Below, piece by piece: positions 3,021 to 59,100 of a DNA stretch of 64,000 bases. Made by a program: the position numbers and the translations under genes. The DNA comes from an uncultured Anaerolineae bacterium (lineage in GTDB: Bacteria; Chloroflexota; Anaerolineae; Aggregatilineales; UBA3940). Each line of letters starts with the position of its first letter. Position 1 is the first letter of the stretch. The DNA lies in the NCBI GenBank assembly GCA_964603985.1, contig CAZRXG010000008.1, forward strand, positions 10,531-74,530, given 5' to 3'. The notes beneath the pieces are model-generated. The model was not told the DNA's origin, ran no database searches, and was given only the letters and a program-made list of their open reading frames with translations.

Positions 3021-5180
<2,160 letters not shown>

Positions 5181-5200
5181 GGGGCGGAGGGGTTCAAACC

Positions 5201-5227
5201 GCAGATTGCGCGGATTGCGCGGATTTT
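5201..5227. repeat. 9-nt tandem motif GCAGATTGC|GCGGATTGC|GCGGATTTT (member of a dispersed family)
   Basis: Read directly. It contains two overlapping copies of TTGCGCGGATT (5206-5216 and 5215-5225). Confidence 0.85.
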
Positions 5228-5311
5228 ACATACTCAGTATGCCCGGAGCACGAACGGTGGTTTCCGATACCGACGAGGTATTGACCGGCATCCTGGATGA
5301 CCTCAGAGATT

Positions 5312-5340
5312 TTGACAGAATACATTATTTTGAATACAAT
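5312..5340 (+). promoter_or_regulatory. Sigma70-type promoter of the TetR gene (TTGACA-17-TACAAT)
   Basis: TTGACA lies at 5312-5317 and TACAAT at 5335-5340, separated by a 17-nt spacer. The palindromic operator follows immediately. Confidence 0.7.
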
Positions 5341-5359
5341 ACTGACATGTCAGTTCAGT
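5341..5359. promoter_or_regulatory. Putative TetR operator: 14-bp perfect palindrome ACTGACATGTCAGT within the 19-nt element ACTGACATGTCAGTTCAGT
   Basis: A perfect palindrome abuts the -10 box. The same 19-nt element occurs as an exact reverse complement at 6084-6102. Confidence 0.7.
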
Positions 5360-5369
5360 TTGGAGAATC

Positions 5370-5963
5370 ATGAAAGCCGACCAAAGAAAAAAACAAATCC
5401 TCGACGCAGCGCTGACGGCATTTGCAGAGCATGGCTATGAGCGCACGAGTATTGCAGTTATCTGCAAGAAGGCGGGCATTGCCCGGCCTACTCTTTATCA
5501 GTATTTCGACAACAAACAATCAGTTTTCCGAGCGCTTCTGGAAAGCTATCTGCTTGGATTCCATGAGGCGCTTCATGCGCGACAACAGGCAAAGGATGGC
5601 GGGAAAGCGCTTTCGCAGCGGGAAACCATGCAATCCCTTCACGAGGAACTGTTGGAGGAGATTTCTAACAACCGCGACTTCTATACGATTCTATTCAAGG
5701 AAGCGAAGGCCAAGAATGCGGAAACTGGAGACATTGTCAGGGAATTCATGCAGATGCTGATACACAAGTTAGCGAGCGAAATGGAATCGGAGTCGGGCTG
5801 GGAGGATATGAGCGAGCAGGACATGAAATTTGCCGTGGTGTATATGATTGGCGGCACGATGCAGACGGTGGAGTACTATCTTTTCGACGATGAACATACC
5901 ATGTCAACGCAAGAAATTGCTGAAAGACTTACGTTTATCGAATCGAGGATCAAAGGGGTATAA
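5370..5963 (+). CDS. TetR/AcrR family transcriptional regulator
   Basis: 197 aa with an N-terminal TetR helix-turn-helix (HTH) motif (ILDAALTAFAEHGYERTSIAVICKKAGIARPTLYQYFDNKQSVF). An SD GGAGA precedes it. The gene lies in an AT-rich segment. Confidence 0.9.
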   Translation: MKADQRKKQILDAALTAFAEHGYERTSIAVICKKAGIARPTLYQYFDNKQSVFRALLESYLLGFHEALHARQQAKDGGKALSQRETMQSLHEELLEEISNNRDFYTILFKEAKAKNAETGDIVREFMQMLIHKLASEMESESGWEDMSEQDMKFAVVYMIGGTMQTVEYYLFDDEHTMSTQEIAERLTFIESRIKGV

Positions 5964-6083
5964 CGGCGCAATGCGGAACAGTGGAGAAATTGTGTTGAAA
6001 GCCGGGAGAATACACCGCCAGATGCGGTTGGATTGTTGATCCAATCGGGCCGCTCTGTGTTGAACAATATTTTTTTTCTTTGT

Positions 6084-6102
6084 ACTGAACTGACATGTCA
6101 GT
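6084..6102. promoter_or_regulatory. Second copy of the putative TetR operator (ACTGAACTGACATGTCAGT)
   Basis: It is the exact reverse complement of 5341-5359. It overlaps a weak promoter-like TTGAAC (6060-6065)-17-TACTGA upstream of the membrane-protein gene. Confidence 0.65.
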
Positions 6103-6149
6103 TTTTGTGATGTTTGGCTCGATGAATTGTATCAGGGAAAAAACAAGAA

Positions 6150-6698
6150 GTGAAGAACCTGATGGGGAAAAAGGCAAGAATAAATCGCACACTCAACATT
6201 TTGAACCTGTTTGTATCCATTATTGTTTTCGGCACAGGGCTGATTCTTTTTACTCAGTTTCATGTCGGAGACGGAGCATATCGAAAAGAGTGGCTTGGGC
6301 ATGTGAAAACGTTCTGGCTGCACATTCACCAGGCAGCGGCCATTACTTTTTCAATCGGATTTGCGGCTCACATCCAGACGCATTGGAAATACATCAGGAT
6401 GGTGGTGAAGCGATGGCGTGTGGACCTGTCCAAAAGAATCAAATCAACCACGCGTGAACAAATTCTGTTGCTCATTGCCACGCTGGTTGTAATGTGGGCC
6501 GGATTTTACCCCTGGATCACCATGCCGGGAGCAACGTTGGCGGTCGAGACATATCACAACTGGATCGATGTACATAATGTAGTCGGGCTTATTCTTCTTC
6601 TTGGGATAGCTATACATATCATCAGGCGGTGGCAGCGGATATTTTACTTGCGCCGAAACGCAAAGCTGCGAAATATGCCACGCTTTGGGAACCGTTGA
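6150..6698 (+). CDS. Membrane protein with about 4 transmembrane (TM) helices and His-rich helices, DUF4405/cytochrome-b-like (tentative)
   Basis: 182 aa with hydrophobic helices carrying conserved His (LHIHQAAAITF, AAHIQTHW, IAIHIIRRW). The start could be GTG 6150 or ATG 6162. Confidence 0.7.
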   Translation: MKNLMGKKARINRTLNILNLFVSIIVFGTGLILFTQFHVGDGAYRKEWLGHVKTFWLHIHQAAAITFSIGFAAHIQTHWKYIRMVVKRWRVDLSKRIKSTTREQILLLIATLVVMWAGFYPWITMPGATLAVETYHNWIDVHNVVGLILLLGIAIHIIRRWQRIFYLRRNAKLRNMPRFGNR

Positions 6699-6718
6699 CC
6701 GGAGAGCAAAAACATATT

Positions 6719-6973
6719 ATGGAGGGGAACACAGTGAGGTCGCGAGGAAGAAGCACAAAACACATCTGTTTGGATACCAGCAAGTGCGAAGCCTGCTGGG
6801 TGTGTATCGACGAGTGCAAATACGGCGTACTGGGGAAAGTGGATTTCTGGTTTCATAAGCATGTAGTCGTTAAAGACTCAGAGAAATGTAGCGGCTGCAA
6901 ACACTGCGTCGACGTATGTCCTAATGGCGTGTTTGAGCCTGTGCTACAACCCCAAACCGTTACAAATCGTTGA
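6719..6973 (+). CDS. 4Fe-4S dicluster ferredoxin-like protein
   Basis: Two Cys clusters are present (CEACWVCIDEC and CSGCKHCVDVCP). The long 6629 start overlaps the upstream gene. ATG 6719, or GTG 6734 preceded by GGAGGGG, is more plausible. Confidence 0.8.
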   Translation: MEGNTVRSRGRSTKHICLDTSKCEACWVCIDECKYGVLGKVDFWFHKHVVVKDSEKCSGCKHCVDVCPNGVFEPVLQPQTVTNR

Positions 6974-7119
6974 AGTATTTGTGTCATTGGACACAGTCGC
7001 AGACATAAAACCCCGCATTGGTAATAGTCGCGACCGTTGGGCATCTTGCGCGGATTGATACACTTCCGGTCGATTGCGAGGGAACGTGCTATACTCTGGC
7101 CCCAGGGCGCGTTTTGCGT

Positions 7120-7638
7120 GTGAGAAATCTGAAAGCGGGAGGATCGACGGGCTTGTCTGGTTACACCAAGAAACTTGTGATCTTGTGGGCGGTCGTGATC
7201 GTGAGCTACGCGCTCATCGTCCTGCTGGCTAACCCGATGCGCCAGTGGCGGTTTACGCCGGAAGAGAAGGAAGCGATCTTCGAGGAGCTTCAGGTGGTGT
7301 GGTGCAGGAACATGAACCTGACCACCCACGCCGAACTGGAGGACATGCGGTACGTCCAGGTCGCCGCGATTCAGCAGGAGCATCGCCTGACGGCCATCGA
7401 CACGCGGAACATTGTTCTGTGGGCGGTTGAGCACGGGCGGGGCGTCGAGCCGTGCTTCTTCCAGGCGGCGTCCCGCACGCTGTGCGCGGGGGAGGATCTG
7501 CTTGACCTGACGCCGCAGGGGATCAGGGGGAGTTTTGGGCTTTCGGAGAGCGATGTCGAGCTCATCACCGGGTACGGCTTCCGGCAGGGCTGGGAAGCGC
7601 ATCCGTGCTACTATGAGGAGGGGCTGCCCATCCCGTAA
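7120..7638 (+). CDS. Hypothetical membrane-anchored protein
   Basis: One N-terminal TM helix (LVILWAVVIVSYALIVLLA). No family was recognised. The start is uncertain (the ORF opens at 7018, and GTG 7120 follows an extended -10-like TGCTATACT at 7087-7095). The antisense ORF 6853-7602 looks like low-complexity shadow. Confidence 0.55.
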   Translation: MRNLKAGGSTGLSGYTKKLVILWAVVIVSYALIVLLANPMRQWRFTPEEKEAIFEELQVVWCRNMNLTTHAELEDMRYVQVAAIQQEHRLTAIDTRNIVLWAVEHGRGVEPCFFQAASRTLCAGEDLLDLTPQGIRGSFGLSESDVELITGYGFRQGWEAHPCYYEEGLPIP

Positions 7639-7765
7639 GGCAGGGATCTGTGAGAGAATATTGAACCTTTTGTAGGAGTTAGGGGTATTCTAATTGGGAG
7701 ACGGGCAGCGTGGACTTTGCAATACCGGACTGAGATTTGCATCTCTCCCTCTCCTTCGCAAAAAA

Positions 7766-7800
7766 GGGGGATAGCTCCTGGGCTATCCCTCTTTGTTTTT
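7766..7800. terminator. Hairpin terminator, possibly bidirectional
   Basis: The stem GGGATAGC...GCTATCCC has AAAAA on its 5' side and CTTTGTTTTT on its 3' side. Confidence 0.6.
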
Positions 7801-7928
7801 GCTCCTGCCTCCGAGATTCTACGGCACGCCTTAGGACTCCGGTAGGATTTACAGCCGTCCGCTTCTCGCCTAAGCTGGAAGATAGATGAGGATAGTCATT
7901 CTCTTATTTATGAAGGGTGAGAGAGGCC

Positions 7929-8483
7929 ATGAACAGATCGAATAAGCACGGGACACGTTGGCTGGTTTTGATGGGGGCGCTGGTGATCGTGGCGCTGGTG
8001 GTGAGCGCGTGCTCGGTGCTCGGCGGCGCCAGCGGCGGGGTTGGCGGCAAGAAGGACGAGGGGAATCCCCTCCCGACCCCGCGCCCGGCCGAGGACGTGG
8101 GCGCAAAGTCGCAGAGCGCGGCCAAGGACACACCCGAGGCGACCTGGGAGAGCTACCTGCGCGACGTCATCGCCGAGCAGGTTTCACAGCGTGGGTCGCT
8201 GATCAGCCTGTACGAGCGCTACCAGAACCCGGACATCACCTCGCAAAACCTGGGCGGCACGTTGCAGGACATTGACCTGGTGGAAGACCGGACCGAGTTC
8301 TCCATGAGCGGCAACAGCGCGAGTGCCTGGACCGACTTCGACGTGCGGGTGACCTTCGCCAACGGCGACACAGACACGCGCACCTGTCACTTCACAGTCG
8401 CAATGGAGCTCGACGAAGAGGACGGCGTGTGGTACGTGGTGAACCCGGAGCCACTTGCCGTCTTCGCGGTGTGCAGCCCGTAG
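7929..8483 (+). CDS. Hypothetical lipoprotein
   Basis: The signal peptide carries a lipobox (LVIVALVVSAC). An SD GAGAGAGG lies before ATG 7929. No family was recognised. Confidence 0.75.
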   Translation: MNRSNKHGTRWLVLMGALVIVALVVSACSVLGGASGGVGGKKDEGNPLPTPRPAEDVGAKSQSAAKDTPEATWESYLRDVIAEQVSQRGSLISLYERYQNPDITSQNLGGTLQDIDLVEDRTEFSMSGNSASAWTDFDVRVTFANGDTDTRTCHFTVAMELDEEDGVWYVVNPEPLAVFAVCSP

Positions 8484-8669
8484 ACTGCGCCCGACCATAC
8501 AGAGGCGTTACATCTGGCGTGCTGGTACCGGGGAGGGATTTACATCTCGCCCCGGTCTGGTTTATGATAGAAGAAGCTGGACTCCGGGGAAAAGGAACTT
8601 TTACCGGTAGTTGTACGTTATATATGATGGAGCGTTTTTCAGTAGCGGAAGGATGTTCGGGTTGTGACG

Positions 8670-8801
8670 ATGGGAGGCGTGACATTGACCAACAAGGAGT
8701 CCACAGACCGCGTTGAGCAGCGGGGTCTGATTGCCGGAGCCGCATTTATGCTGCTTCTCATTCTTAGCCTCGTTGCCATCGCAACCATTTACATCGGCTG
8801 A
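8670..8801 (+). CDS. Possible small single-TM protein (43 aa)
   Basis: Hand-translated as MGGVTLTNKESTDRVEQRGLIAGAAFMLLLILSLVAIATIYIG. It has one clear hydrophobic helix and a weak ribosome-binding site. It falls below the ORF-track length threshold. Confidence 0.3.
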   Translation: MGGVTLTNKESTDRVEQRGLIAGAAFMLLLILSLVAIATIYIG

Positions 8802-8850
8802 GAAGCAAAAGGGGGAAATCGTTTTGCGTGATCAGCCAGCAACCCAGTGA

Positions 8851-8982
8851 GCGCGCCGGTGGCAAACAGGTAACCGGCGCGTTCGGCTTTTTCGGCCATC
8901 CTCGAAGATCATTGGCGGGTACAGGCCCGGCGCGCCGGTAGGCGAGTAAAGCAACCGGCGCGTTCGGCTTTTTCAGCCATCC
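8851..8982. repeat. Duplicated ~52-bp hairpin module (GCGCGCCGGT..AACCGGCGCGTTCGGCTTTTTC[G/A]GCCATCC), two copies about 79 bp apart
   Basis: Copy 1 is at 8851-8901 and copy 2 at 8929-8982. Each folds as a CGCGCCGGT/ACCGGCGCG stem followed by TTCGGCTTTTT. Copy 2 overlaps the murE stop codon. Confidence 0.8.
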
Positions 8983-10532
8983 CCGGAGGCCGTCGGTAGG
9001 GTGCGGAGCGGCGCGCCGCGCAGCGCGGCCCGCATCGCGTCACGGTCGTCCCAGGGGTACTCCACCGTCCCGAAGCACATGCTTTGCTCGTGACCCTTGC
9101 CGCAGCTCAGGACGATGTCGCCGGGGCGGGCAAGCTGCACGGCGTGGTAGATGGCCTGGCCGCGATCAGGGACGCGCCAGAACGTCTGCCCCTCGACGCT
9201 GCCGACCGCCGTACATGCCTCGGCGCTGACGGTCAGGATCTCCTCAAGCGACTCGGTGCGCGGGTCCTCGGCGGTGATGACAACCAGATCGGCGTGGCGG
9301 GCGGCGATCTCGCCCATCATGGCGCGCTTGGCGGGATCGCGCAGACCGGCGCTGCCGAAGACGACGATCACGCGCCCGGCGGGCGAGATCATCAGCCGGG
9401 CGGCCTCCAGCGTGCGGCGCAGGGCGTTGGGCGTGTGGGCGAAATCGACCACGGCCAGGAAATCCTGCCCCTCGTCGATGCGCTCCAGGCGACCGGGGAT
9501 GCCCTTGACCGCCTCGATGCCCGCTTTGATGGCCTCCGGCGGGATGCCAAGACCGTGCGTCGCGGCGACGGCGGCCAGGACGTTGCTGACGTTGAACTCG
9601 CCGACCAGCGCGCTGTCGATGGACAGCGTGCTGTCGTCGGGCAGACGGACGGTTAGGCGGGTTGCGCTGGGGGCGTAGGCGACACCGGCGGCAGTGAGAT
9701 CGGCGCCAGACCGCGCGCCGATGGCGTAGGTGATATGGCGGTCGGCGGGGATGGCGAGCAGGTAGTCGGCGCTGGGTTCGTCGTCGAGGTTGATGACTGC
9801 CAGCTTGGGCGTGCCGGGCTTGCGTGCGCCGGTCGCCAGATCGCGGAAGAGGGCGGCCTTGGCGTCGCGGTAAGCCTCCCACGAGCCGTGAAAATCGAGG
9901 TGCTCGTGCTGGATGTTGGTTACGACCGCCACGTCGAAATCGCAGGCGGCGACGCGGTGCTGGGCCAGGCCGTGCGAGGTGGCCTCCAGCGTGCAGTGCG
10001 TCAGACCGGCCTCGACCATGCGGGCCAGGTAGCCCTGCACCTGGGGCGCGGTGGGCGTGGTGACGTGCAGGCCGGTGGGGACTTCTTCGTCGCCGAGCAC
10101 GGCGTTGATGGTGCTGATCATCCCGGCCTTGAGCGCGGCGGCCCTGAGGACGCTGTGGATCAGGTTGGTGGTGGTGGTCTTGCCGTCGGTGCCGGTGACG
10201 CCGATCATGACCAATTGGCGGGCGGGGAACCCGGCGCAGGCGGCGCTGAGGTGGGCCAGCGCCAGCCCGGCGTCGGCGACGTGGACGTAGGGTACGGGGC
10301 AGTCCACCGCGTCAGGGGGGCGCTGGCCGACGACGGCCACCGCGCCGCGCTCGACGGCGGCGGGGATGTAGTCGTGGCCGTCGGCGGTGAGGCCGGGGCG
10401 CGCGACGAAGATCCCGCCTGGCTCGACGGCGCGGCTGTCCTCGACGACGGGGGCGGTGACCGCCGGGTCGGCGTCGAGGCGGGGCGTGCTGAGGATGTTG
10501 GGGATGTGGGATATCAGCTCAGATAGGTGCAT
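8973..10532 (-). CDS. murE: MurE-family UDP-N-acetylmuramoyl-tripeptide synthetase
   Basis: 519 aa with the Mur ligase P-loop GVTGTDGKTTTT, central and C-terminal Mur ligase regions, and an EDPR motif at the position of the MurE DNPR motif. Confidence 0.88.
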   Translation of the reverse strand: MHLSELISHIPNILSTPRLDADPAVTAPVVEDSRAVEPGGIFVARPGLTADGHDYIPAAVERGAVAVVGQRPPDAVDCPVPYVHVADAGLALAHLSAACAGFPARQLVMIGVTGTDGKTTTTNLIHSVLRAAALKAGMISTINAVLGDEEVPTGLHVTTPTAPQVQGYLARMVEAGLTHCTLEATSHGLAQHRVAACDFDVAVVTNIQHEHLDFHGSWEAYRDAKAALFRDLATGARKPGTPKLAVINLDDEPSADYLLAIPADRHITYAIGARSGADLTAAGVAYAPSATRLTVRLPDDSTLSIDSALVGEFNVSNVLAAVAATHGLGIPPEAIKAGIEAVKGIPGRLERIDEGQDFLAVVDFAHTPNALRRTLEAARLMISPAGRVIVVFGSAGLRDPAKRAMMGEIAARHADLVVITAEDPRTESLEEILTVSAEACTAVGSVEGQTFWRVPDRGQAIYHAVQLARPGDIVLSCGKGHEQSMCFGTVEYPWDDRDAMRAALRGAPLRTLPTASGDG

Positions 10533-10615
10533 GGCGTATGACCGATGGCTGGCTTTGTTGGCAGAGTATAAAGCGGATCGCCGCCCCGCGCTATGGTTGT
10601 CCCGGCCTGGCTATC

Positions 10616-12340
10616 TTATTTATCCCAGTCTTCGGCCAGCGTTGACTTGGCTTCTTTTAGATCGATCCATGCTTTGTGGCCGTGCTTTTCGAGCAGGTGG
10701 AGCAGGTTACTGCCGTTTAGCAACACCAATGGTTTGTCCTTTGCGAATTTGTAGGCATCAGGACCGTAATCGGCGGTGGTGACTAGAATGCCTTTGTTCG
10801 CACCCTCGTTCATCACGGTTCCGTAGAGGTCGCGAACCGCCGAAACACCAACAGCGTTCGTGTAACGCTTGGCCTGGATGACGATCTTACCGCCATGAAT
10901 CGGATCGGGATCAAACACAACGGCGTCGATCCCTCCATCGCGGCTTGCACGGGTCACTTTCACTTCACTGCCGGGGCCGGAGAATTCTTTCTCGAAGAGT
11001 TCGCGTACTAGGTGCTCAAAATCCTCCCAGTCCATAGCAGCCAGGTTGTCTCCCTCCCGCACGCCGTCGATGACAGCGTAGGAATCGATGAAGCGGCTGT
11101 CTTCCCGATCCATCTGGAGAATGGGGGCCACCGGTGCCATGCTGTGTAACTTGGAACTACCTACGCCCTTGAGCTTCTTGAAACAAGCTTTTGGTTCAAC
11201 GCTGGCGAGGTTTACCGCCTCGAACTCTTCTTTATCTGCCATAAGTGAGAGGACGCAGGCGTGTACTTCCTGGCCTGTTGCCGGGTCAATTGAATCCACA
11301 TATCCGTTGAAGACAACGGATATTAGAGCGTTAATCCTGTCAGCTTCGTAGAGTTCGTGGATAGTACGCAGTGCAATCTGATACAGCAGGTTATCGTAGA
11401 GCGCGTTAAGCTGCGTCTGCGAAATGTGCTTCTCGTCGAATTCGTCCCGGGTCTGTACGTATTTGACTTCTTTGAGCGTCGGTATACTGTCGACGGCGGG
11501 GAGTTGGTAGTCTACTATCAGGATCTTGCTCTCTGGATTGTAGTCCAATTCACACGACTGGGGGAAATAGTCCGGATAGTCCGAATTTGAGAGCACCATG
11601 TCACAGTAATCGACAATGGCTTCAGGATCGTTGCCTAAATATCTCTCCATCTTTGCATCAACGGACGCATTGCGTTCGTCGCGCCTTCTTAGGAAGGCTG
11701 CGCGTTTTGCGTCCCATGTCGATAAGGCTGCTTGATATTCAGACTGTAGCCTGCTGATTGTCGCGGTTGTCTTTCCTTTTGCCTCCTGCCATTGTTGGTG
11801 CTCACGTTTGAAGCGGGCTTTTCTCTCTTTTTCCCTCGCCACTCTCCGAGAAGTGAAAACACCGTCGAGGAAATCGTCCAGGAAGCCGATCTTAATCTCA
11901 TACTTCTGATCTGATAGTTGGGGTTCTCGCGGAATCTGTGGTAATGCGGGTTTCTCCGGTCTGGGCACGGGGTAGTCCGAGAAGTCTTTCAGAGATTCCC
12001 AGTCAACCGTGTCGTCCACACCAAGGGTATGAGCTAGTGTATTCTCTAGGGCAGACAAAGCCTGTTGAGCTTCCTCGGTGCGTTCGTCGGCGAGGAGTTT
12101 CTTTTCCTCAATTTCCTTTGCCCGGCGCTCGCGCTCCAATCGCTTCCTCTCGGCTTCCTGTTTGCGTTCCCACATCTCATCCCATTGCGCCATTTTTGCT
12201 TCGGCTTTTTGCTCGACTATGTAGAGGTTGTCGCCTCGAACAACTTCGTACTTGTTGAGTCCTCCGTGCCGGATCTCCAGCACATATCTTTTAAGACCGC
12301 TCTTTGTATGGGTAACCCGGATTTCACCCCTCTTGCTCAT
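10616..12340 (-). CDS. Mrr-type (PD-(D/E)xK) restriction-endonuclease-domain protein with a long N-terminal coiled-coil and uncharacterised region
   Basis: 574 aa. The C-terminus matches the Mrr_cat pattern (FEHLVRELF...DGGIDAVV...IVIQAKRY...GILVTTADYG). The N-terminus has charged coiled-coil stretches (ERKQEAERKRLERERRAKEIEEKK). The gene is AT-rich. On the minus strand, a -10-like TACAAT (12362-12367) and an SD AAGGGGGG lie upstream. Confidence 0.85.
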   Translation of the reverse strand: MSKRGEIRVTHTKSGLKRYVLEIRHGGLNKYEVVRGDNLYIVEQKAEAKMAQWDEMWERKQEAERKRLERERRAKEIEEKKLLADERTEEAQQALSALENTLAHTLGVDDTVDWESLKDFSDYPVPRPEKPALPQIPREPQLSDQKYEIKIGFLDDFLDGVFTSRRVAREKERKARFKREHQQWQEAKGKTTATISRLQSEYQAALSTWDAKRAAFLRRRDERNASVDAKMERYLGNDPEAIVDYCDMVLSNSDYPDYFPQSCELDYNPESKILIVDYQLPAVDSIPTLKEVKYVQTRDEFDEKHISQTQLNALYDNLLYQIALRTIHELYEADRINALISVVFNGYVDSIDPATGQEVHACVLSLMADKEEFEAVNLASVEPKACFKKLKGVGSSKLHSMAPVAPILQMDREDSRFIDSYAVIDGVREGDNLAAMDWEDFEHLVRELFEKEFSGPGSEVKVTRASRDGGIDAVVFDPDPIHGGKIVIQAKRYTNAVGVSAVRDLYGTVMNEGANKGILVTTADYGPDAYKFAKDKPLVLLNGSNLLHLLEKHGHKAWIDLKEAKSTLAEDWDK

Positions 12341-12634
12341 GAGGCCCCCCTTATGAAAACTATTGTATTCCAGCGAGTGACGGCCTTGCCGCTACGATGA
12401 AGATTAGCTTACTTTATGGCTGAATTAAGCCCAACGGGAGTTGGTCAGACCATACCATATAGTATGGGACATCGCAAAATGGACGCAAAAAGTGGCGGTA
12501 CTGACGTAATGACCGGCGGCGCTTTGCGCGCCGCCGTCTCTTACAGCCGGGGTTGTGGATTTCTTCGGGACTACCCGACGATGGTCACCTCCCTCGCGGG
12601 TGGCGCGTAACCGGTGTTGGGAGCACCATCCGCG

Positions 12635-13030
12635 CTATTTGACGACGACGGTCACCTCGAAGGTCCCGATGGGCGCGACATCCTCCTCCCAGGGGCGGCG
12701 GTAGACCAGCTCCAGGGCCGTCTGGCCGGGGGCGACCGCCTCGAAGGTGAAGGTGAACGTGCCGCCTGCACCGACCAGTCCCTCCGCGTTGGGGTCGGTC
12801 TCGTATTCCGGCTCGCCAGCCGACTTGAGCACGGCCTCATCGACCGAGCCGACCTCCCACAGGTAGCCGGTGGTTGGGTTGCCGACCAGCACGACCTCCA
12901 GCTTATCGCCGGTTTTCAGCTCGACGGTGCTGCCCGCGTCCTCTTCGCCCAGTTGGGTGGCAGACGATCCGCAGGCAACCAGCAGGGCGGCCAGCAAGAC
13001 TATCGCAAAGAAGCCAGGTAAACGGGACAT
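12635..13030 (-). CDS. Chagasin-family (I42) cysteine-peptidase inhibitor, lipoprotein
   Basis: The motif GNPTTGYLWE is typical of chagasin/ICP. The lipobox is LLVAC. ATG 13030 is preceded by GGAGG. Confidence 0.8.
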   Translation of the reverse strand: MSRLPGFFAIVLLAALLVACGSSATQLGEEDAGSTVELKTGDKLEVVLVGNPTTGYLWEVGSVDEAVLKSAGEPEYETDPNAEGLVGAGGTFTFTFEAVAPGQTALELVYRRPWEEDVAPIGTFEVTVVVK

Positions 13031-13083
13031 CACGTACCTCCGGTGTGAAAAGCAGACAGGACAAACATAACGGTGTGGGCCGA

Positions 13084-13431
13084 TCAATCGTCGCGGATGA
13101 AGTGCGGCATGTCGGCGGGGATCTCCAGGGACAGCTCGACCAGGCCCGCGAACTCGCCGTCGCGGTACCAGGGCATCTGGTAGATCAACTTCTTGACGCC
13201 GTGCTTCTCGATGGTGTACACGTTCGGCTCCTGGTTGTCGAGCAGGTGCTGAAGCTCGGTGCGGGCAGGCTCAGGGTGGCAGTCGAGTGCATTGGTGCCG
13301 ATCAGCTTCTCGCCGCCGTCCTCCGCGAAGACTTCGAGCGCCTCGTCGTTCATCGCCAGGATGATGCCCTCGGCGTCGCAGACGGTGATCGAGCCGGGGA
13401 ACTCCTTGACCCAGGTGTGCAGTTCTTGCAT
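13084..13431 (-). CDS. Stand-alone PAS-domain protein
   Basis: About 115 aa with a PAS-like core (VCDAEGIILAMNDEALEVF...GTNALDCHPE). ATG 13431 is preceded by GGAGG. There is no output domain. Confidence 0.7.
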   Translation of the reverse strand: MQELHTWVKEFPGSITVCDAEGIILAMNDEALEVFAEDGGEKLIGTNALDCHPEPARTELQHLLDNQEPNVYTIEKHGVKKLIYQMPWYRDGEFAGLVELSLEIPADMPHFIRDD

Positions 13432-13518
13432 GTGGCCTCCGCGTGTGGCTGATGGCATATAGCCGATGGCGTATAGCGTGTGGCGTATTTTGACGGCGTT
13501 GTCACGAAATCCGGTCGA

Positions 13519-14103
13519 TCATTTGAACGGGCCGACATACTTTTCGACGTAGCGGCGAAAGATCGCTTCTTGTTCGGGTGATTCAAACGCCCTTTTAGGG
13601 ACGAATTGAAACATATGTTTATTCATTGCATGGACCAGTAGATAGTACTGTTTTGTCTCCATTGCTTTGTGGAAGATAGCCCATTCCACTTCACTCTTCG
13701 TTTGTACAGAAGCAACGTGTAAGTGGTAGTCATCCATCACCCAGGTAATTTGTTTGAGCTTATCCTCATGTTTTTTGATCTGCTGACCGGCCAGATAAGG
13801 TCTGAGAAACAGTGTATGGAACGGAAGGAACAAGGGGACACCGATACACACTAACAGGAAGAGAGGCGAACAAGTGCCGGTGATCAGTTCCCTACCTGCC
13901 AAATTGAGCACAACAGCCCCCAGACCGACACACATCGTAAGACCGGCCATAAGGCTAAAGACAACGATGAGGATCAAAGACAACGGTTGTCGCAGCGTAA
14001 ATGCTCGAATGACACGCGAGTAATCCTCATGAGTGAGGGTAAAAGAGAGATCGAGGGGTTCCAAGGTGATCCTCCCATCAATCCTGTGTTGGGTGGTAAA
14101 CAC
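13519..14103 (-). CDS. YcxB-like membrane protein
   Basis: 194 aa with two central TM helices and a C-terminal region resembling the YcxB family (WAIFHKAMETKQYYLL). The gene is AT-rich. Confidence 0.6.
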   Translation of the reverse strand: MFTTQHRIDGRITLEPLDLSFTLTHEDYSRVIRAFTLRQPLSLILIVVFSLMAGLTMCVGLGAVVLNLAGRELITGTCSPLFLLVCIGVPLFLPFHTLFLRPYLAGQQIKKHEDKLKQITWVMDDYHLHVASVQTKSEVEWAIFHKAMETKQYYLLVHAMNKHMFQFVPKRAFESPEQEAIFRRYVEKYVGPFK

Positions 14104-14295
14104 CCCCTACCAGAGTTTTAACCTTTCTCGCCCATTTTGCAAGTGGGCGAGCTGGCTACCGGTTCTCCAGAAAAGCCGAGAGTCGAGGCTTACGGAAAAA
14201 GCCTCGACTCTGCTAAAGGGCCGGGAAGCGCGTCCCGGTGGGTGTCGGAGTGGGCGGGCGCAGGAGCGGCGCAGCAGCAGCGGCGCAAAAGCGGG

Positions 14296-15354
14296 CTAGA
14301 AGAACATCTTGGCAAGCCGCAGGATGCCTTGCTTCCAGGGGGCGCGGTGCGAGATGCCCGATTGGTGCTCGAACTGCTCCAGGTTGTCCAGATACCATTG
14401 ATAGTTGCGGATCAGGGCGTCTTTGTTGGAGTAGCGAGGCTTGAAGCCCAGCACCTTCTCGGCCTTCTCGACGCCGACAAAGGAGTCGGTGGCAGCCGTC
14501 TCGTAGACCCACTTGTAGAGCGGCGACAGGCCGAGCGCCTCCAGGATGCGCAGGGCAAGGATGACCGGCCCGGCGGGGAAGGGGATGATGCGTTTGCCAT
14601 GGCCCGCGTAGTCGAGGACGGCCTGCCAGTCTTCGCCCATGGTGGCGAACTCCTGCGCGCCGATGTTGAAGGTGTCGTTGGCGACCTCCGGGTCGAGGGT
14701 GGCGGTCAGGTAGATGGCCTCGCACAGGTCTTCCACGTCGAGAAGCTGGTAGCGGTTCTTGCCGCTGCCGATCATGGGGAAGCTCTTGCCGTCCTTGGCC
14801 CAGTCGTAGAACAGGGCGAAGACGCCCAGCCGCTCCGGGCCGATGAAGGACTTGGGGCGCAGAATGGGCACGCACATGCCTTTGGCGCGGTATTCGAGGC
14901 AGACCTCCTCGGCGAGCACCTTGGCCTCACCGTAGGGGCCGACGCCTTGTTTCTTGTCGTCTTCGTAGATGGGGTGGTGATCGGGGATGCCGTAGACGGC
15001 GGTCGAGGAGATGTGGATGAAGCGCTCGACGCCGCGCTGGAAGGCCGAGTCGATCACGTTGCGCGTGCCGTCGATGTCGGTGGAGAAGATGTCCTCCCGG
15101 CTGTAGAGAGGCAGCGCCGCCGCCGCATGCACGACGATGTCGATGCCCTCCATTGCCCGGTCGACGACCGCCCGGTCGCGGATGTCGCCGTCGATGATGG
15201 TCACGCTGTCCTTGACGTCGGGGTAGTCGAAGGGGGCAAAGTCGAGCGAGGTGACCGTGTGGCCTCGCTTCAGCAGATAGCGGATGAGGTTGATGCCCAG
15301 GAACCCCGCCCCACCGGTGATCAGGTACGATTTTTTGTCCGTCATCGGGTTCAA
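14296..15354 (-). CDS. NAD-dependent epimerase/dehydratase (SDR) family protein
   Basis: Rossmann motif TGGAGFLG and catalytic YxxxK (PYGEAKVLAE). 352 aa. Confidence 0.88.
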   Translation of the reverse strand: MNPMTDKKSYLITGGAGFLGINLIRYLLKRGHTVTSLDFAPFDYPDVKDSVTIIDGDIRDRAVVDRAMEGIDIVVHAAAALPLYSREDIFSTDIDGTRNVIDSAFQRGVERFIHISSTAVYGIPDHHPIYEDDKKQGVGPYGEAKVLAEEVCLEYRAKGMCVPILRPKSFIGPERLGVFALFYDWAKDGKSFPMIGSGKNRYQLLDVEDLCEAIYLTATLDPEVANDTFNIGAQEFATMGEDWQAVLDYAGHGKRIIPFPAGPVILALRILEALGLSPLYKWVYETAATDSFVGVEKAEKVLGFKPRYSNKDALIRNYQWYLDNLEQFEHQSGISHRAPWKQGILRLAKMFF

Positions 15355-15503
15355 TTCCTAGAGGGTCTTCGCCTTGTGGAGCGAAGACTCATGTCTCCTT
15401 GTGTAAAGTGGTAAAGCGTTGCCGGTGCCTGGAATTGCGGCTCCCGGCCCGATAGCCATCCAAACGAGCGTAGTTTATAGCCTATTTACGCTCCGGAAGC
15501 CAG

Positions 15504-16130
15504 TCATCCGGCGGGTAAGCTGCGAATCTGGCGTAAGATCCTGTCGAGGGCGTGATCAATATCCCGGCTGGTATCGACCAGGATGTGGGGGTGCTCGACG
15601 CGGCCCATGCGGGGGGAGAGCTTCTTGTAGATCTGCCAGTCGGCGTCCGAACTGCCGGGCGGCTGCTCCTCTTCGCGGCGGTCGGCCAGGCGCAGCCAGA
15701 CCAGGTAGGGTGGGGCGGTGGTCAGGATGGTGAGGGGGTGGGCACCGGCATCACCGGCAAGCTGGCGGAGTCCGGCGCGCCGCCACTCGCTCAGGTTGAC
15801 GGCGTCGCAGATCACGTCGCGGCGCTCGCCCAGCAGGCGGCGCAGCAGCGCATCGACGGCGCTGTAGACGGCGTGGTTCTCGCGGGGGGTGTAGGTCGGC
15901 GTCTCGAAGAGGGCGGCACGCACCGGGTCGCTGCCGACGAGCGTGAAGGGGGTGGCCTCGCATAAGGCGCGCGCCAGGTGGGTCTTGCCGGTGCCGGGCA
16001 GGCCGGTGAGGATCAGCAGGACGGGCGGGCGCTCGCCTGAGACGGGCGGGGAGAGCGCCAGCCCGGTGTAGATGACGTCGATGGTGGCGGGGTCGGATGG
16101 GTCGTGGGCCGGGCCGGTCGTTGCTGCCAT
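15504..16130 (-). CDS. P-loop ATPase/kinase (AAA_33-like)
   Basis: Walker A motif GLPGTGKTHLA. The size (~200 aa) is typical of small P-loop kinases. Confidence 0.7.
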   Translation of the reverse strand: MAATTGPAHDPSDPATIDVIYTGLALSPPVSGERPPVLLILTGLPGTGKTHLARALCEATPFTLVGSDPVRAALFETPTYTPRENHAVYSAVDALLRRLLGERRDVICDAVNLSEWRRAGLRQLAGDAGAHPLTILTTAPPYLVWLRLADRREEEQPPGSSDADWQIYKKLSPRMGRVEHPHILVDTSRDIDHALDRILRQIRSLPAG

Positions 16131-56700: not shown

Positions 56701-59100
56701 TTATTGGGCCGAGGTATCAGGTGGTGGCAATGGGAGCGGATCGCTGTGCCGGATGCTTGCCCAGTATTCCTGGTAACTATCGATCTTTTTACCCAGTCTT
56801 TTCACCAGGGATTTTGCTCTCGATATATCCTCTTTTGGAAGCCAAGTACGCTCCCCTATTGTTTCTGCCAGAAACTGCCCAAATGCAAGGAAGCTTGGGT
56901 CTTTGATGACTCCGCTTTCAAATAGAGTGGCAAAAGCCGTAACGTTGTCACATTCAGCACATGCCGCAGCTAGGAAGAAAGCAGACCACTCTGCCTTTTT
57001 CTTCTCCCTTCCGGACAGAGCATCGTAGGATAGAGAGCTATAATGCTCTGCTAGGTCGGAGAGTACGGGGAACAAAGTATTGGATCCTAGGGTTGCGCCC
57101 GCAATGATGCCGAATACTCCAACGAAAAAGAGATGTGGAATAGCTTGCGCCTTGAACTTAGGTTTCTCATCAAGCTCTGCATAGTTGTTGCAGAATTTGT
57201 CCCAAGCTTCGGGAAGCAAGTCAAGCACTTGATTAACCACAGCGGCTTTAACAGTTTTTGGAGCTAGGTACGTGGCCTGAGCTACCATTCCCAGATTCAT
57301 TGAATAAACGAGGACATCGGAAGAAGATGGTGTTACCTGCTCCATAATGCGGTTGAGGTGGTTCTCACTGTCGGGGCACAGACCGCAGGCGAAAAATGTC
57401 GCGTATGACCACCAGGGGTCGAGGAAGTTGTTGACAATAACCTGTTCCGCATCAGGGCGACTATCAATCTCAAGCCCAACAAAATACTCTTGGAACGAGC
57501 GATGTTTAAACTCATAGGCGCCTTCATCGTTTGAAAACAGCAGTTCGGATCGTTCGGTTATCTCCTTGGAAAGGATGGCAGGAATAAGTTCCTCTATGCC
57601 GCGTTCCTGGCTGAACCTCTGCACTTCCTTGTCAAAGTCGGATTGGGTGATCTGTGTCTCGTATTGCTCGTGAATTGACCAACTTATTTTTCGAAGGAAG
57701 AACTGTTTTATCCTCCACTCGATCTGTAACGATATGTCTCTACCCGTGTCCCAGCGGCCTAATGCGAGTTCAACATATTTTGCAAATAACTCAGTCAGAT
57801 TAGCTGGGATCTCTTGACCACTTTCATGTAGGCTGGCTACCAATGCAAGTGTCAGCGGCGTAGAAGGTAGTCCGTGAAGAGCGGTTGGTCCACTTACCAA
57901 CCTCGCCAGCTTCCTGCCAGCCTGACTGTTTTCACCATACCAATTCTCTACAAATTCGATCATCTGCGAGGGGGATAGCTCATTGATCCTGAGAACGCGG
58001 AAACCGGACAGAACAGTTGGCTGATCGAAGATATCTAGTAGCCGTGAAGTTAGGACTATCCTTACGGTGGGATATCTATGACTGAACTCTCGAACGAGGT
58101 TGAGGGTGGTTTCTATGCGCTCCTCAGATTGCAATTCATCCAGACCATCGAGTAACACTATCACGGAGCCTTCTGTCAAATCTTCATCAAGTCCTTGTTC
58201 AGTGCCGACCGAACAAAAGCGATGAAACTGTTGGCTAAGTGCGCTCTCTATAGCTTGAGGGTCAGACAAGTCTAAGTTCTTGAAATTCACCAAAACTGGA
58301 ATTGGGCCTCTCCGAGCAGCTTTCTCGTTGCTCTCAATTATGTGAAGTAGCATTTTCCTTAGAAGTGTCGACTTGCCGGATCCAACATCGCCGAGGATGA
58401 CCGTGTTCTCAGACATCCTCAAGATATTGTTGAAAGAGTACCGCTTTTCGCGTTGTTTAGTTTGCTTTGCGTGTTGTCTTGTGATAGGTGTCAGTACAGG
58501 AGGTACGAAGATCGAAGATACCTGATGCTGCTCACTGGAACAGCCGAGGACTCGCAGTTCTTCTATTCGGCTATAAGTTTCCCAAGTTGATGCATAGTAT
58601 TCAGAAACGTATGGGTCGCGTATGGTAAAGAATGACTTATAATGACGCTCCAAAAGGTCGATAGTAGCATCACCGTCTACGAACTGCACGTTCCTAAAGT
58701 CCTTGTCGAGAGCTGCCATTATTATTGTTTTCGCGTTGTCTGATATGTTTCCTGTTGTCCAGACAATGACTTCATTCACAGGAGCCTTCTGTTTTCCTCT
58801 CACGTCTTCAACTGGAACTTGGAATGCCATATTGATTTGGTCTCTGACGATGGCGAGATTGGCTTTACCTCCTGCTGCTGCACTTATGTCGCCTGCTTTT
58901 GCCACGACTGCATAATACTGCCTGCCTCCGAAGTCAGATGGTTTAGAACATACTATGTCCTTGCCGAATTCTTGGCGTCCATGTGTCTCTTGGACGTTCT
59001 CGTACCCCATTTTAATGAGTAAGGGAACCAATATATCTGCTCGAAACTTGGCCTCGTCAAATTCCCTCAGGATACCTCGCTTCTCTGACTGTGTGATCAC
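56701..59100 (-). CDS. STAND/NACHT NTPase with an N-terminal Mrr-like PD-(D/E)xK nuclease domain and an unassigned C-terminal domain
   Basis: 799 aa. The N-terminus reads LLIKMGYENVQETHGRQEFGKDIV...YYAVVAKAG (PD-(D/E)xK-like). Walker A is GDVGSGKSTLL and Walker B is VIVLLDGLDE, followed by a NACHT-like region. The last ~330 aa are helical with no repeat family I recognise. The start GTG 59100 is preceded by GGGGGTG. The gene is strongly AT-rich relative to its flanks. Confidence 0.88.
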   Translation of the reverse strand: MITQSEKRGILREFDEAKFRADILVPLLIKMGYENVQETHGRQEFGKDIVCSKPSDFGGRQYYAVVAKAGDISAAAGGKANLAIVRDQINMAFQVPVEDVRGKQKAPVNEVIVWTTGNISDNAKTIIMAALDKDFRNVQFVDGDATIDLLERHYKSFFTIRDPYVSEYYASTWETYSRIEELRVLGCSSEQHQVSSIFVPPVLTPITRQHAKQTKQREKRYSFNNILRMSENTVILGDVGSGKSTLLRKMLLHIIESNEKAARRGPIPVLVNFKNLDLSDPQAIESALSQQFHRFCSVGTEQGLDEDLTEGSVIVLLDGLDELQSEERIETTLNLVREFSHRYPTVRIVLTSRLLDIFDQPTVLSGFRVLRINELSPSQMIEFVENWYGENSQAGRKLARLVSGPTALHGLPSTPLTLALVASLHESGQEIPANLTELFAKYVELALGRWDTGRDISLQIEWRIKQFFLRKISWSIHEQYETQITQSDFDKEVQRFSQERGIEELIPAILSKEITERSELLFSNDEGAYEFKHRSFQEYFVGLEIDSRPDAEQVIVNNFLDPWWSYATFFACGLCPDSENHLNRIMEQVTPSSSDVLVYSMNLGMVAQATYLAPKTVKAAVVNQVLDLLPEAWDKFCNNYAELDEKPKFKAQAIPHLFFVGVFGIIAGATLGSNTLFPVLSDLAEHYSSLSYDALSGREKKKAEWSAFFLAAACAECDNVTAFATLFESGVIKDPSFLAFGQFLAETIGERTWLPKEDISRAKSLVKRLGKKIDSYQEYWASIRHSDPLPLPPPDTSAQ

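Follow-up and report, generated by a model that had tools for sequence, protein, structure and literature searches.

A stand-alone Mrr-type nuclease with a portable N-terminal module in an uncultured Anaerolineae bacterium

We analysed a stretch of 64,000 nucleotides from an uncultured Anaerolineae bacterium (contig CAZRXG010000008.1, positions 10,531 to 74,530 of the forward strand), called the window below. One minus-strand gene in the window encodes a protein of 574 amino acids with an N-terminal module of about 400 residues and a C-terminal Mrr-type PD-(D/E)xK nuclease domain. The N-terminal module is portable and recurs in other proteins with different effectors. We consider it moderately probable that the protein is a horizontally acquired, autonomous, single-polypeptide defence nuclease that is governed or targeted by this module.

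Results

The Mrr nuclease domain

The gene is a single intact open reading frame (ORF) with an ATG start. Its parts are listed below, in the order of the protein. Boundaries come from the ORF list, Pfam, alignments and AlphaFold2 models, in which confidence is given as the predicted local distance difference test score (pLDDT).

10616..12340, minus strand: complete gene for a stand-alone Mrr-type nuclease with a portable N-terminal module (ORF list; PADLOC PDLC03663)
12227..12340, minus strand: small basic three-stranded beta head, residues 1-38, strands 8-11, 17-25 and 30-36 (AlphaFold2, pLDDT about 90)
12044..12226, minus strand: first long helix (coiled-coil arm 1), residues 39-99 (AlphaFold2, pLDDT 93-97; alignment)
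11855..12043, minus strand: proline-rich segment between the helices, residues 100-162 (alignment; AlphaFold2)
11636..11854, minus strand: second long helix (coiled-coil arm 2), residues 163-235, the least conserved part (AlphaFold2)
11141..11635, minus strand: central alpha/beta domain, residues 236-400, of a fold family without known relative (AlphaFold2 of the domain alone; conservation)
11042..11140, minus strand: flexible acidic linker, residues 401-433 (pLDDT 51-67, with residues 410-414 below 50)
10673..11041, minus strand: Mrr_cat PD-(D/E)xK nuclease domain, residues 434-556 (Pfam PF04471; alignment; Foldseek)

The only Pfam match to the protein is Mrr_cat (PF04471, residues 434-550, E=1.6e-32; score 112.5 bits, cut-off 21), together with the related NA-iREase1 model at a lower score. 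The initial annotation of this DNA, made from its letters alone, had read a C-terminal Mrr_cat domain from its motifs, and the profile match bears this out. It had also taken the catalytic D, E and K residues to be a point on which its proposal could fail. We aligned 42 homologues with 57-67% identity to the query, and E442, E447, D468, D472 and Q489-A-K491 do not vary among them. The modelled core runs alpha-beta-beta-beta-alpha-beta (helix 438-452, strands 459-463, 473-476 and 485-491, helix 499-512, strand 516-521). When the whole model was searched with Foldseek, it matched nuclease-containing structures, namely MspJI, AspBHI, AF1548, Can2 and Cdn1. The match to AF1548 (1y88) has a root-mean-square deviation (rmsd) of 4.2 Å and a template modelling (TM) score to the target of 0.49. 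By profile score, catalytic residues and core fold, the domain belongs to the Mrr_cat family of the PD-(D/E)xK superfamily.

Anatomy of the N-terminal module

AlphaFold2 modelled the protein on the alignment of 42 homologues with a mean pLDDT of 84.6. H25 and K30 of the head are invariant in this alignment, and the family mean isoelectric point (pI) of the head is 8.9. Foldseek also returned short matches of 52 columns that resemble a double-stranded RNA-binding domain. The output did not give the matched query residues, and these matches may correspond to the beta head. W53 and W57 are invariant in the first long helix. The segment between the helices carries the conserved motif HTLxIDDxVDWExLK; L102, P128 and P140 are invariant and W114 is nearly so. 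Despite its prolines, this segment is not modelled as disordered, as pLDDT is 82-95 at residues 101-150. The two long helices probably form an antiparallel coiled-coil arm, and we infer that their pairing mediates dimerisation. A beta-rich head and two charged coiled-coil stretches had been placed in the first ~200 residues by the initial annotation. The head and the helices appear in the model, but the second helix runs past that limit to residue 235.

The central domain spans residues 239-394 in the full-length model. Modelled alone, it reached a pLDDT of 85.3 and a predicted TM score of 0.78. It is acidic, with a net charge of -15 in the query and family means of -10 for net charge and 4.7 for pI. 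The linker behind it has a family mean net charge of -3.3. Mean identity to the query is 84% for the Mrr domain, 67% for the central domain, 53% for helix 1, 50% for the head and 30.5% for helix 2. Across 150 diverse representatives of all architectures, described in the next section, S253, Y255, P281, Y320, R325, E329, D334, N345, G346, G356, C362 and C386 are conserved in at least 90%, and N345, G346 and G356 are invariant. These residues could form a binding site or an active site alike. Because of the mean net charge of -10, the domain fits a regulatory or protein-binding role better than DNA reading.

Recurrence of the module with various effectors

A profile of the central domain was searched against 1.84 billion representatives, and domain architectures were read in the 150 best. 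The search found 2,813 clusters (50% identity) at E≤0.001, 759 of them at E≤1e-30. Mrr is present in 85 of the 150 best representatives and absent from 65. Most Mrr-less representatives (53 of 65) end within 60 residues of the central domain. The module was found with the following partners.

Mrr_cat, as a C-terminal fusion: query and 85 of 150 representatives
TerB_N/TerB/TerB_C (Shango SngA): P0206, P0232, P0246, P0263
SNase, as a separate overlapping gene: P0130
RNase_T (DEDDh) exonuclease, N-terminal: P0136, P0160, P0223
HIRAN: P0141
Zinc ribbon, C-terminal: P0251, P0265
None, module alone: P0126, P0148

The Shango cases are the best defined. In P0246, residues 25-390 match PDLC03663 and residues 449-792, with TerB and TerB_C domains, match SngA; its gene is followed downstream by SngB (E=1.6e-164) and SngC (E=8e-232). 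P0263 marks a second, independent Shango locus with the module. P0246, P0206 and P0232 all match SngA as well as positions ~28-399 of PDLC03663, and domain hidden Markov models found the head, both helices and the central domain in each of these three proteins. The module of P0206 lies entirely upstream of the stretch that matches positions 45-521 of the 528 in the PADLOC SngA profile. As it precedes nearly the whole profile match, canonical SngA would appear to be without the module.

The module also occurs as a gene of its own. P0130 is encoded by a complete gene for the module alone, and an SNase gene (PF00565, E=3.6e-20) overlaps the end of this gene. P0126, also module-only, is encoded within a toxin-antitoxin cluster, and the DNA downstream of it shows no remnant of Mrr. 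We considered whether all module-only forms are artefacts. P0149 is probably truncated, since an IS1595 transposase follows it. The explanation was rejected for the others, which are complete genes with no Mrr remnant downstream.

The initial annotation had described the N-terminal two-thirds as a separable sensor or regulatory module. That it is separable is observed, as it is found with TerB, DEDDh, HIRAN or SNase or by itself; that it is a sensor we infer.

A further module-only protein, P0148 (421 amino acids), is encoded between a canonical Mrr gene (Mrr_N and Mrr_cat, 310 amino acids) and a SNIPE/T5orf172 gene (554 amino acids). Two independent contigs (L085, 2958-7034; L086, 2033-6109) show this gene order. 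Possibly the locus is a small island of defence genes. Alternatively, the system may be split, so that the module acts together with a nuclease from another gene.

Distribution and mobile elements

An identical protein is present in public data (P0001), and it was also found on a Logan contig with the same neighbours. In the protein collection, 6,953 of 8,000 candidates scored matched at E≤0.001. The 120 best protein matches are full-length and are named just "restriction endonuclease" or "restriction system protein". A survey with one genome per species found 551 stretches that encode a relative. The 80 best copies are near-full-length, and nearly all match the query from about residue 1-25 on. 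Their sources span more than 20 bacterial phyla, plus one ANME-2 archaeon. Copies from Planctomycetota, Eisenbacteria and Bacillota (57-58% identity) are nearer to the query than some Anaerolineales copies (51-53%). Horizontal transfer is suggested, since identities to the query do not track taxonomy. Together, the patchy, non-vertical distribution and the foreign GC content described below point to horizontal acquisition of the gene.

Of 211 plasmid records with a match, just three have one that spans 80% of the query or more. Other plasmid matches are shorter forms that start at about query residue 183-199 and are without the head and the first helix. Many are probably matches to the Mrr domain alone. 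Complete phage genomes are essentially without the family, and 32 IMG/VR viral contigs carry relatives. The Clostridium felsineum copy lies on a 19.7-kb element with a tail-fibre gene. On the Pseudochrobactrum plasmid NZ_CP075356.1 (L123, 7114-9668), a full-length relative lies 33 bp 3' of a prophage repressor gene of the LexA/CI family. A place downstream of the prophage repressor is classic for prophage-borne superinfection-exclusion genes. Vertical inheritance, which the initial annotation had set as a test of its proposal, does not describe this family, given its spread over more than 20 phyla, identities that depart from taxonomy, foreign GC content and carriage on mobile elements.

The Pseudochrobactrum locus as a whole is prophage-like. 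A Cro/CI regulator adjoins, RecT and a PD-(D/E)xK recombination nuclease are present, and TcmP and DUF5131 genes come after the relative.

Neighbourhoods of relatives

Neighbouring genes were clustered with four genes on each side of the target at 80 homologous loci. No conserved partner gene was found at these loci; generic ABC ATPases form the largest cluster, which spans four of them. Flanking genes were then scanned with PADLOC at E≤1e-8. The set of 118 genes directly beside the target (each of at least 120 amino acids) matches 164 PADLOC families, compared with 31 families for 118 distal genes at least 6.5 kb away at the same loci. Adjacent-gene matches include AbiU, AbiLi, AriA, CapP, type I and IIG restriction enzymes, MkoA, GajB, ThsB and several PDC candidates. 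A rough count among the matches listed gives ~18-20 defence-like proteins among the adjacent genes and ~8-10 among the distal genes. Pfam matches in the adjacent set are housekeeping enzymes mixed with resolvases, ResIII, AAA_21, DUF4062 and Peptidase_M78.

Single loci differ. The Halobacillus copy adjoins a ScoMcrA-like HNH enzyme, a DUF87 ATPase and a DUF4145 protein, which is an obvious defence island. Two other sampled copies lie amid tRNA synthetase, histidine biosynthesis or pilus genes. The association of relatives with defence genes is real but moderate, and many loci are housekeeping. The initial annotation would have been contradicted by an absence of enrichment near defence genes; the enrichment (164 adjacent families, 31 distal) is present, if moderate.

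Searches for relatives of the central domain

NCBIfam gave no match to the protein. The central domain matched no Pfam family and no PDB sequence or profile. Foldseek of the isolated domain against the PDB gave nothing significant (best E=0.016, TM 0.27), and a BFVD search returned uncharacterised phage proteins only. PADLOC PDLC03663 (mREase_IV, "type IV restriction enzyme") covers residues 46-557 with E=5.3e-67. As this model aligns nearly the whole protein, the architecture has already been catalogued as a candidate type IV enzyme. The earlier view that the central ~200 residues match nothing that can be named therefore holds for Pfam, NCBIfam, PDB sequences and profiles and Foldseek of the PDB, but not for PADLOC, whose model spans the region.

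Several identities were tried and rejected. The strand-helix order of the modelled central domain resembles a PD-(D/E)xK core, and a fold kinship is left open. An active duplicated or degenerate Mrr or PD-(D/E)xK nuclease was ruled out, with an hhalign probability of 1% against the Mrr domain. The candidate nuclease motif D277...E290-x-K292 on strands 2 and 3 was rejected because E290 and K292 vary and none of the three residues reaches 90% conservation. An SRA-like reader as in MspJI was rejected because the whole-model match was not reproduced by the isolated domain. For the head, a LysM-like identity (phmmer, 6ve2_O, E=0.04) was rejected because the modelled topology, three strands and then a helix, does not fit. 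The LysM topology is beta-alpha-alpha-beta. A PADLOC match to NsnC of Menshen at residues 271-369 (E=0.013) was too weak and was not used.

Distant relatives of the central domain without Mrr occur in phages. The PHROGs family phrog_38135 matches residues 224-391 (E=3e-4), and the BFVD entry A0A8S5QPN9 (243 amino acids) is a distant phage relative with E=4e-4 and TM 0.51. These proteins could be phage versions of the module, or decoys.

The locus and its base composition

One flank of the gene is murE (8973..10532, minus strand, with three Mur ligase Pfam domains). The other flank is a gene for a chagasin-family inhibitor (12635..13087), followed by a PAS protein (13084..13458). Further neighbours encode a YcxB-like protein and an epimerase. 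The nuclease gene has a GC content of 0.519, and 0.593 at third codon positions (GC3). The corresponding values are 0.71 and 0.906 for murE and 0.642 and 0.808 for the chagasin gene. The window mean is 0.637, and the nuclease gene falls within the lowest 4.7% of equal-length windows. A lone minus-strand gene of lower GC content between murE and the chagasin/PAS pair is what the initial annotation had outlined at 10600-12420, and this range encloses the ORF.

Two candidate signals flank the coding region.

10573..10589, minus strand: terminator-like hairpin (GCGGGGCGGCGATCCGC, then a T-rich tail), from a consensus scan, pattern match only
12345..12350, minus strand: G-run (AAGGGGGG on the coding strand), 5-10 nt 5' of the ATG, read from the sequence

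The hairpin lies 27 nt past the stop codon of the nuclease gene, ahead of murE. The G-run is a possible ribosome-binding site. With this G-run upstream and the terminator-like hairpin downstream, the gene resembles a self-contained transcription unit. No methyltransferase or specificity subunit was found among the ten neighbouring ORFs scanned (window 5370-16130). This agrees with the earlier reading of the neighbourhood, as does the lack of a conserved partner at the 80 loci. The gene shows no convincing insertion scars. Its flanks have no credible repeats, direct or inverted, and we found neither a tRNA nor an adjacent integrase.

Other parts of the window are also low in GC. The islet at 5001-8000 holds a TetR regulator (5370-5963, GC 0.48) and a DUF4405/cytochrome b561-like protein (6150-6698, GC 0.47), and the islet at 13301-14200 holds the YcxB-like membrane protein (13519-14103, GC 0.47). 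The region around the nuclease gene is a mosaic of foreign-looking genes amid GC-rich core genes (~63-71% GC). GC is lowest in the islet at 56.5-59.4 kb of the window (down to 0.467), which contains a 799-amino-acid ORF (56701-59100, minus strand). Its N-terminal part has the restriction-endonuclease-like motif GKDIVCSK...YYAVVAKAG, followed by a P-loop (GDVGSGKST) and a Walker B-like LLDGLDE. This ORF resembles a defence NTPase of the STAND/NACHT type with a restriction-endonuclease-like N-terminal domain, and it has no sequence relative in the PDB.

Discussion

Proposed mode of action

We propose that the effector would be the C-terminal Mrr-type PD-(D/E)xK domain, which would cut DNA. The module, made of the basic beta head, the two helices and the acidic alpha/beta domain, would bring about oligomerisation and would handle recognition or regulation. 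Until a cue tied to foreign nucleic acid or infection appears, it would keep the nuclease inactive or without a target, and the flexible linker would tether the nuclease and allow it to be held off or released. In other proteins the same module would act as a plug-in unit, on TerB in Shango SngA, on DEDDh exonucleases, on HIRAN and beside an SNase gene partner. In this proposal the module presumably controls the nuclease instead of merely accompanying it, and the function is most likely anti-phage.

A stand-alone nuclease of the defence type had been the conclusion of the initial annotation. It is supported by the conserved catalytic motif, the lack of a partner gene, the non-vertical distribution and the enrichment of defence models among adjacent genes.

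Several points weigh against our explanation. The family is already labelled as a type IV restriction enzyme in PADLOC, although the name mREase_IV is a database label and not an assay. Literature searches found no experimental characterisation of family members. The module is 50-67% identical across phyla and is far more conserved than typical phage-protein sensors. Some module-only genes have no effector next to them, which means that the module itself may be active. Housekeeping genes surround the gene in the present window and at least two sampled homologous loci. The enrichment of PADLOC families (164 to 31) is a crude measure, as it counts families, uses home-made ORF calls and takes its distal control from genes that may themselves sit inside defence islands.

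Other explanations

The main alternative is a classical type IV enzyme. The module would then be a new modified-DNA reader with a dimerisation arm, and Mrr would cut foreign-modified DNA, as in E. coli Mrr and MspJI. PADLOC assigns the whole architecture to mREase_IV, the protein has an intact Mrr_cat domain, a methyltransferase is neither nearby nor conserved, MspJI and AspBHI are the top whole-model Foldseek matches, and DNA contacts by the basic head and helix 2 are still conceivable. Modification-reader domains are shuffled among different nuclease domains. For this reason the observed modularity is compatible with a type IV enzyme too. We nevertheless regard it as rather unlikely. No known reader fold (Mrr_N winged helix, SRA, PUA/EVE or YTH) was found by Pfam or by Foldseek of the central domain, and the central domain is strongly acidic (pI 4.7). 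The whole-model matches to MspJI and AspBHI are poor (TM 0.16-0.23, rmsd 19-22 Å), and both structures are absent from the top 50 Foldseek matches of the isolated central domain. The module is also found on TerB/Shango proteins and without any nuclease, and the PADLOC name, as said, is a label.

The central domain might instead be an enzyme itself, either a second effector or one that processes a signal. The protein would then be a dual-activity defence factor and the module would be more than a sensor. With a mean identity of 67%, the domain varies less than the head and the helices do; its polar residues S253, Y255, Y320, R325, E329, D334, N345, C362 and C386 are at least 90% conserved in the 150 representatives; and module-only forms occur as complete genes. 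The strand-helix order is like that of a PD-(D/E)xK core, and Upx is a precedent for dual-nuclease defence in a single protein (PMC13099982). The conserved polar residues could equally be a binding interface, however, and the candidate D277...E290-x-K292 motif is not conserved, hhalign pairs the central and Mrr domains with a probability of just 1%, and no enzyme fold was matched in the PDB or BFVD. We therefore judge a second enzyme improbable. Least credible to us is a gene outside defence, whether a nuclease for DNA repair or genome maintenance or a selfish, toxin-like gene that spreads by horizontal transfer. Housekeeping neighbours at many loci, the present one included, and the unusually high sequence conservation across phyla would suit such a gene. 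It accords poorly with the patchy, non-vertical distribution and foreign GC content, with carriage on plasmids and prophages, with defence-model matches that are commoner among adjacent than distal genes, and with a module common to Shango, an experimentally validated anti-phage system.

Significance

The gene itself is no surprise, because stand-alone Mrr nucleases are familiar and automatic annotation would call this one a type IV restriction enzyme. The novelty lies in the N-terminal unit, in how large its superfamily is and in its reuse with Shango and with several types of nuclease. We found no description of this ~400-residue unit in the literature searched, and it has no Pfam family and no solved relative. 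It is highly conserved across phyla and reused with at least five different nucleic-acid-related partners, Shango among them. For these reasons it is a candidate for a control module shared within bacterial immunity, and the present gene provides a one-gene system for its study.

A broader idea, which we put forward tentatively and would not bet on, is that the module is a widely distributed immune unit not described before, a common infection-sensing or effector-gating device plugged into interchangeable outputs. These outputs would be Mrr, SNase, DEDDh exonuclease, HIRAN and the TerB-ATPase-helicase set of Shango. If this is true, the single-gene Mrr form would be a tractable model for what the module-bearing subset of Shango senses.

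Comparison with known systems

Like E. coli Mrr and the Mrr_cat family, the present protein has a C-terminal Mrr_cat domain with an intact D...QxK motif and stands alone with no methyltransferase. It differs in that a module of about 400 residues replaces the Mrr_N winged-helix DNA-binding domain. Compared with type IV enzymes in general, it shares the lack of a methyltransferase, but Pfam and Foldseek found no recognisable reader (Mrr_N, SRA, PUA/EVE or YTH). Another nuclease of the Mrr family, Sll1429 of Synechocystis, is reported to be involved in resistance to mitomycin C and phage (Gu et al. 2025, Microbiol Res 296:128123). The protein does not belong to CoCoNuT/McrBC, as no McrB GTPase or McrC was found in the protein, among its neighbours in the window or as a conserved partner at the 80 loci.

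MspJI and AspBHI, which are modification-dependent enzymes of type IIM, gave the best whole-model Foldseek matches (E ~1e-6) and follow a similar logic, with a recognition part before a C-terminal PD-(D/E)xK nuclease. Since TM is 0.16-0.23 and rmsd 19-22 Å, these matches reflect the nuclease domain and the length. The isolated central domain fails to retrieve them, and the present protein has no SRA-like domain.

Two single-polypeptide defence proteins can also be compared. The DUF4041/SNIPE protein with T5orf172 has a central coiled coil and a C-terminal DNA-cleaving domain (Vassallo et al. 2022; PMC9519451). The present protein likewise combines a coiled coil and a C-terminal nuclease in one chain, but it has no PF13250 or T5orf172/GIY-YIG match (Pfam, E up to 1) and no membrane anchor, and its nuclease is of another family. 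Upx is a single-protein dual PD-(D/E)xK defence factor of 1272 amino acids whose canonical C-terminal nuclease is regulated by upstream domains (PMC13099982). It shares with the present protein the one-protein form and a C-terminal PD-(D/E)xK nuclease. Its domain layout is different, and it was not among the PDB sequence or Foldseek matches.

Shango is experimentally anti-phage (bioRxiv 10.1101/2022.11.11.516204). Our literature searches turned up no published Shango mechanism, and according to a 2025 preprint the working of TerB-domain defence proteins is still unclear. The present gene is not a Shango gene: its product has no TerB, TerB_N or TerB_C domain in Pfam and no SngA match in PADLOC, and it has no SngB ATPase or SngC helicase neighbours. 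Shango consists of the TerB protein SngA, the ATPase SngB and the helicase SngC, and the likeness lies in the first of these, as some SngA proteins share their N-terminal module with the nuclease described here.

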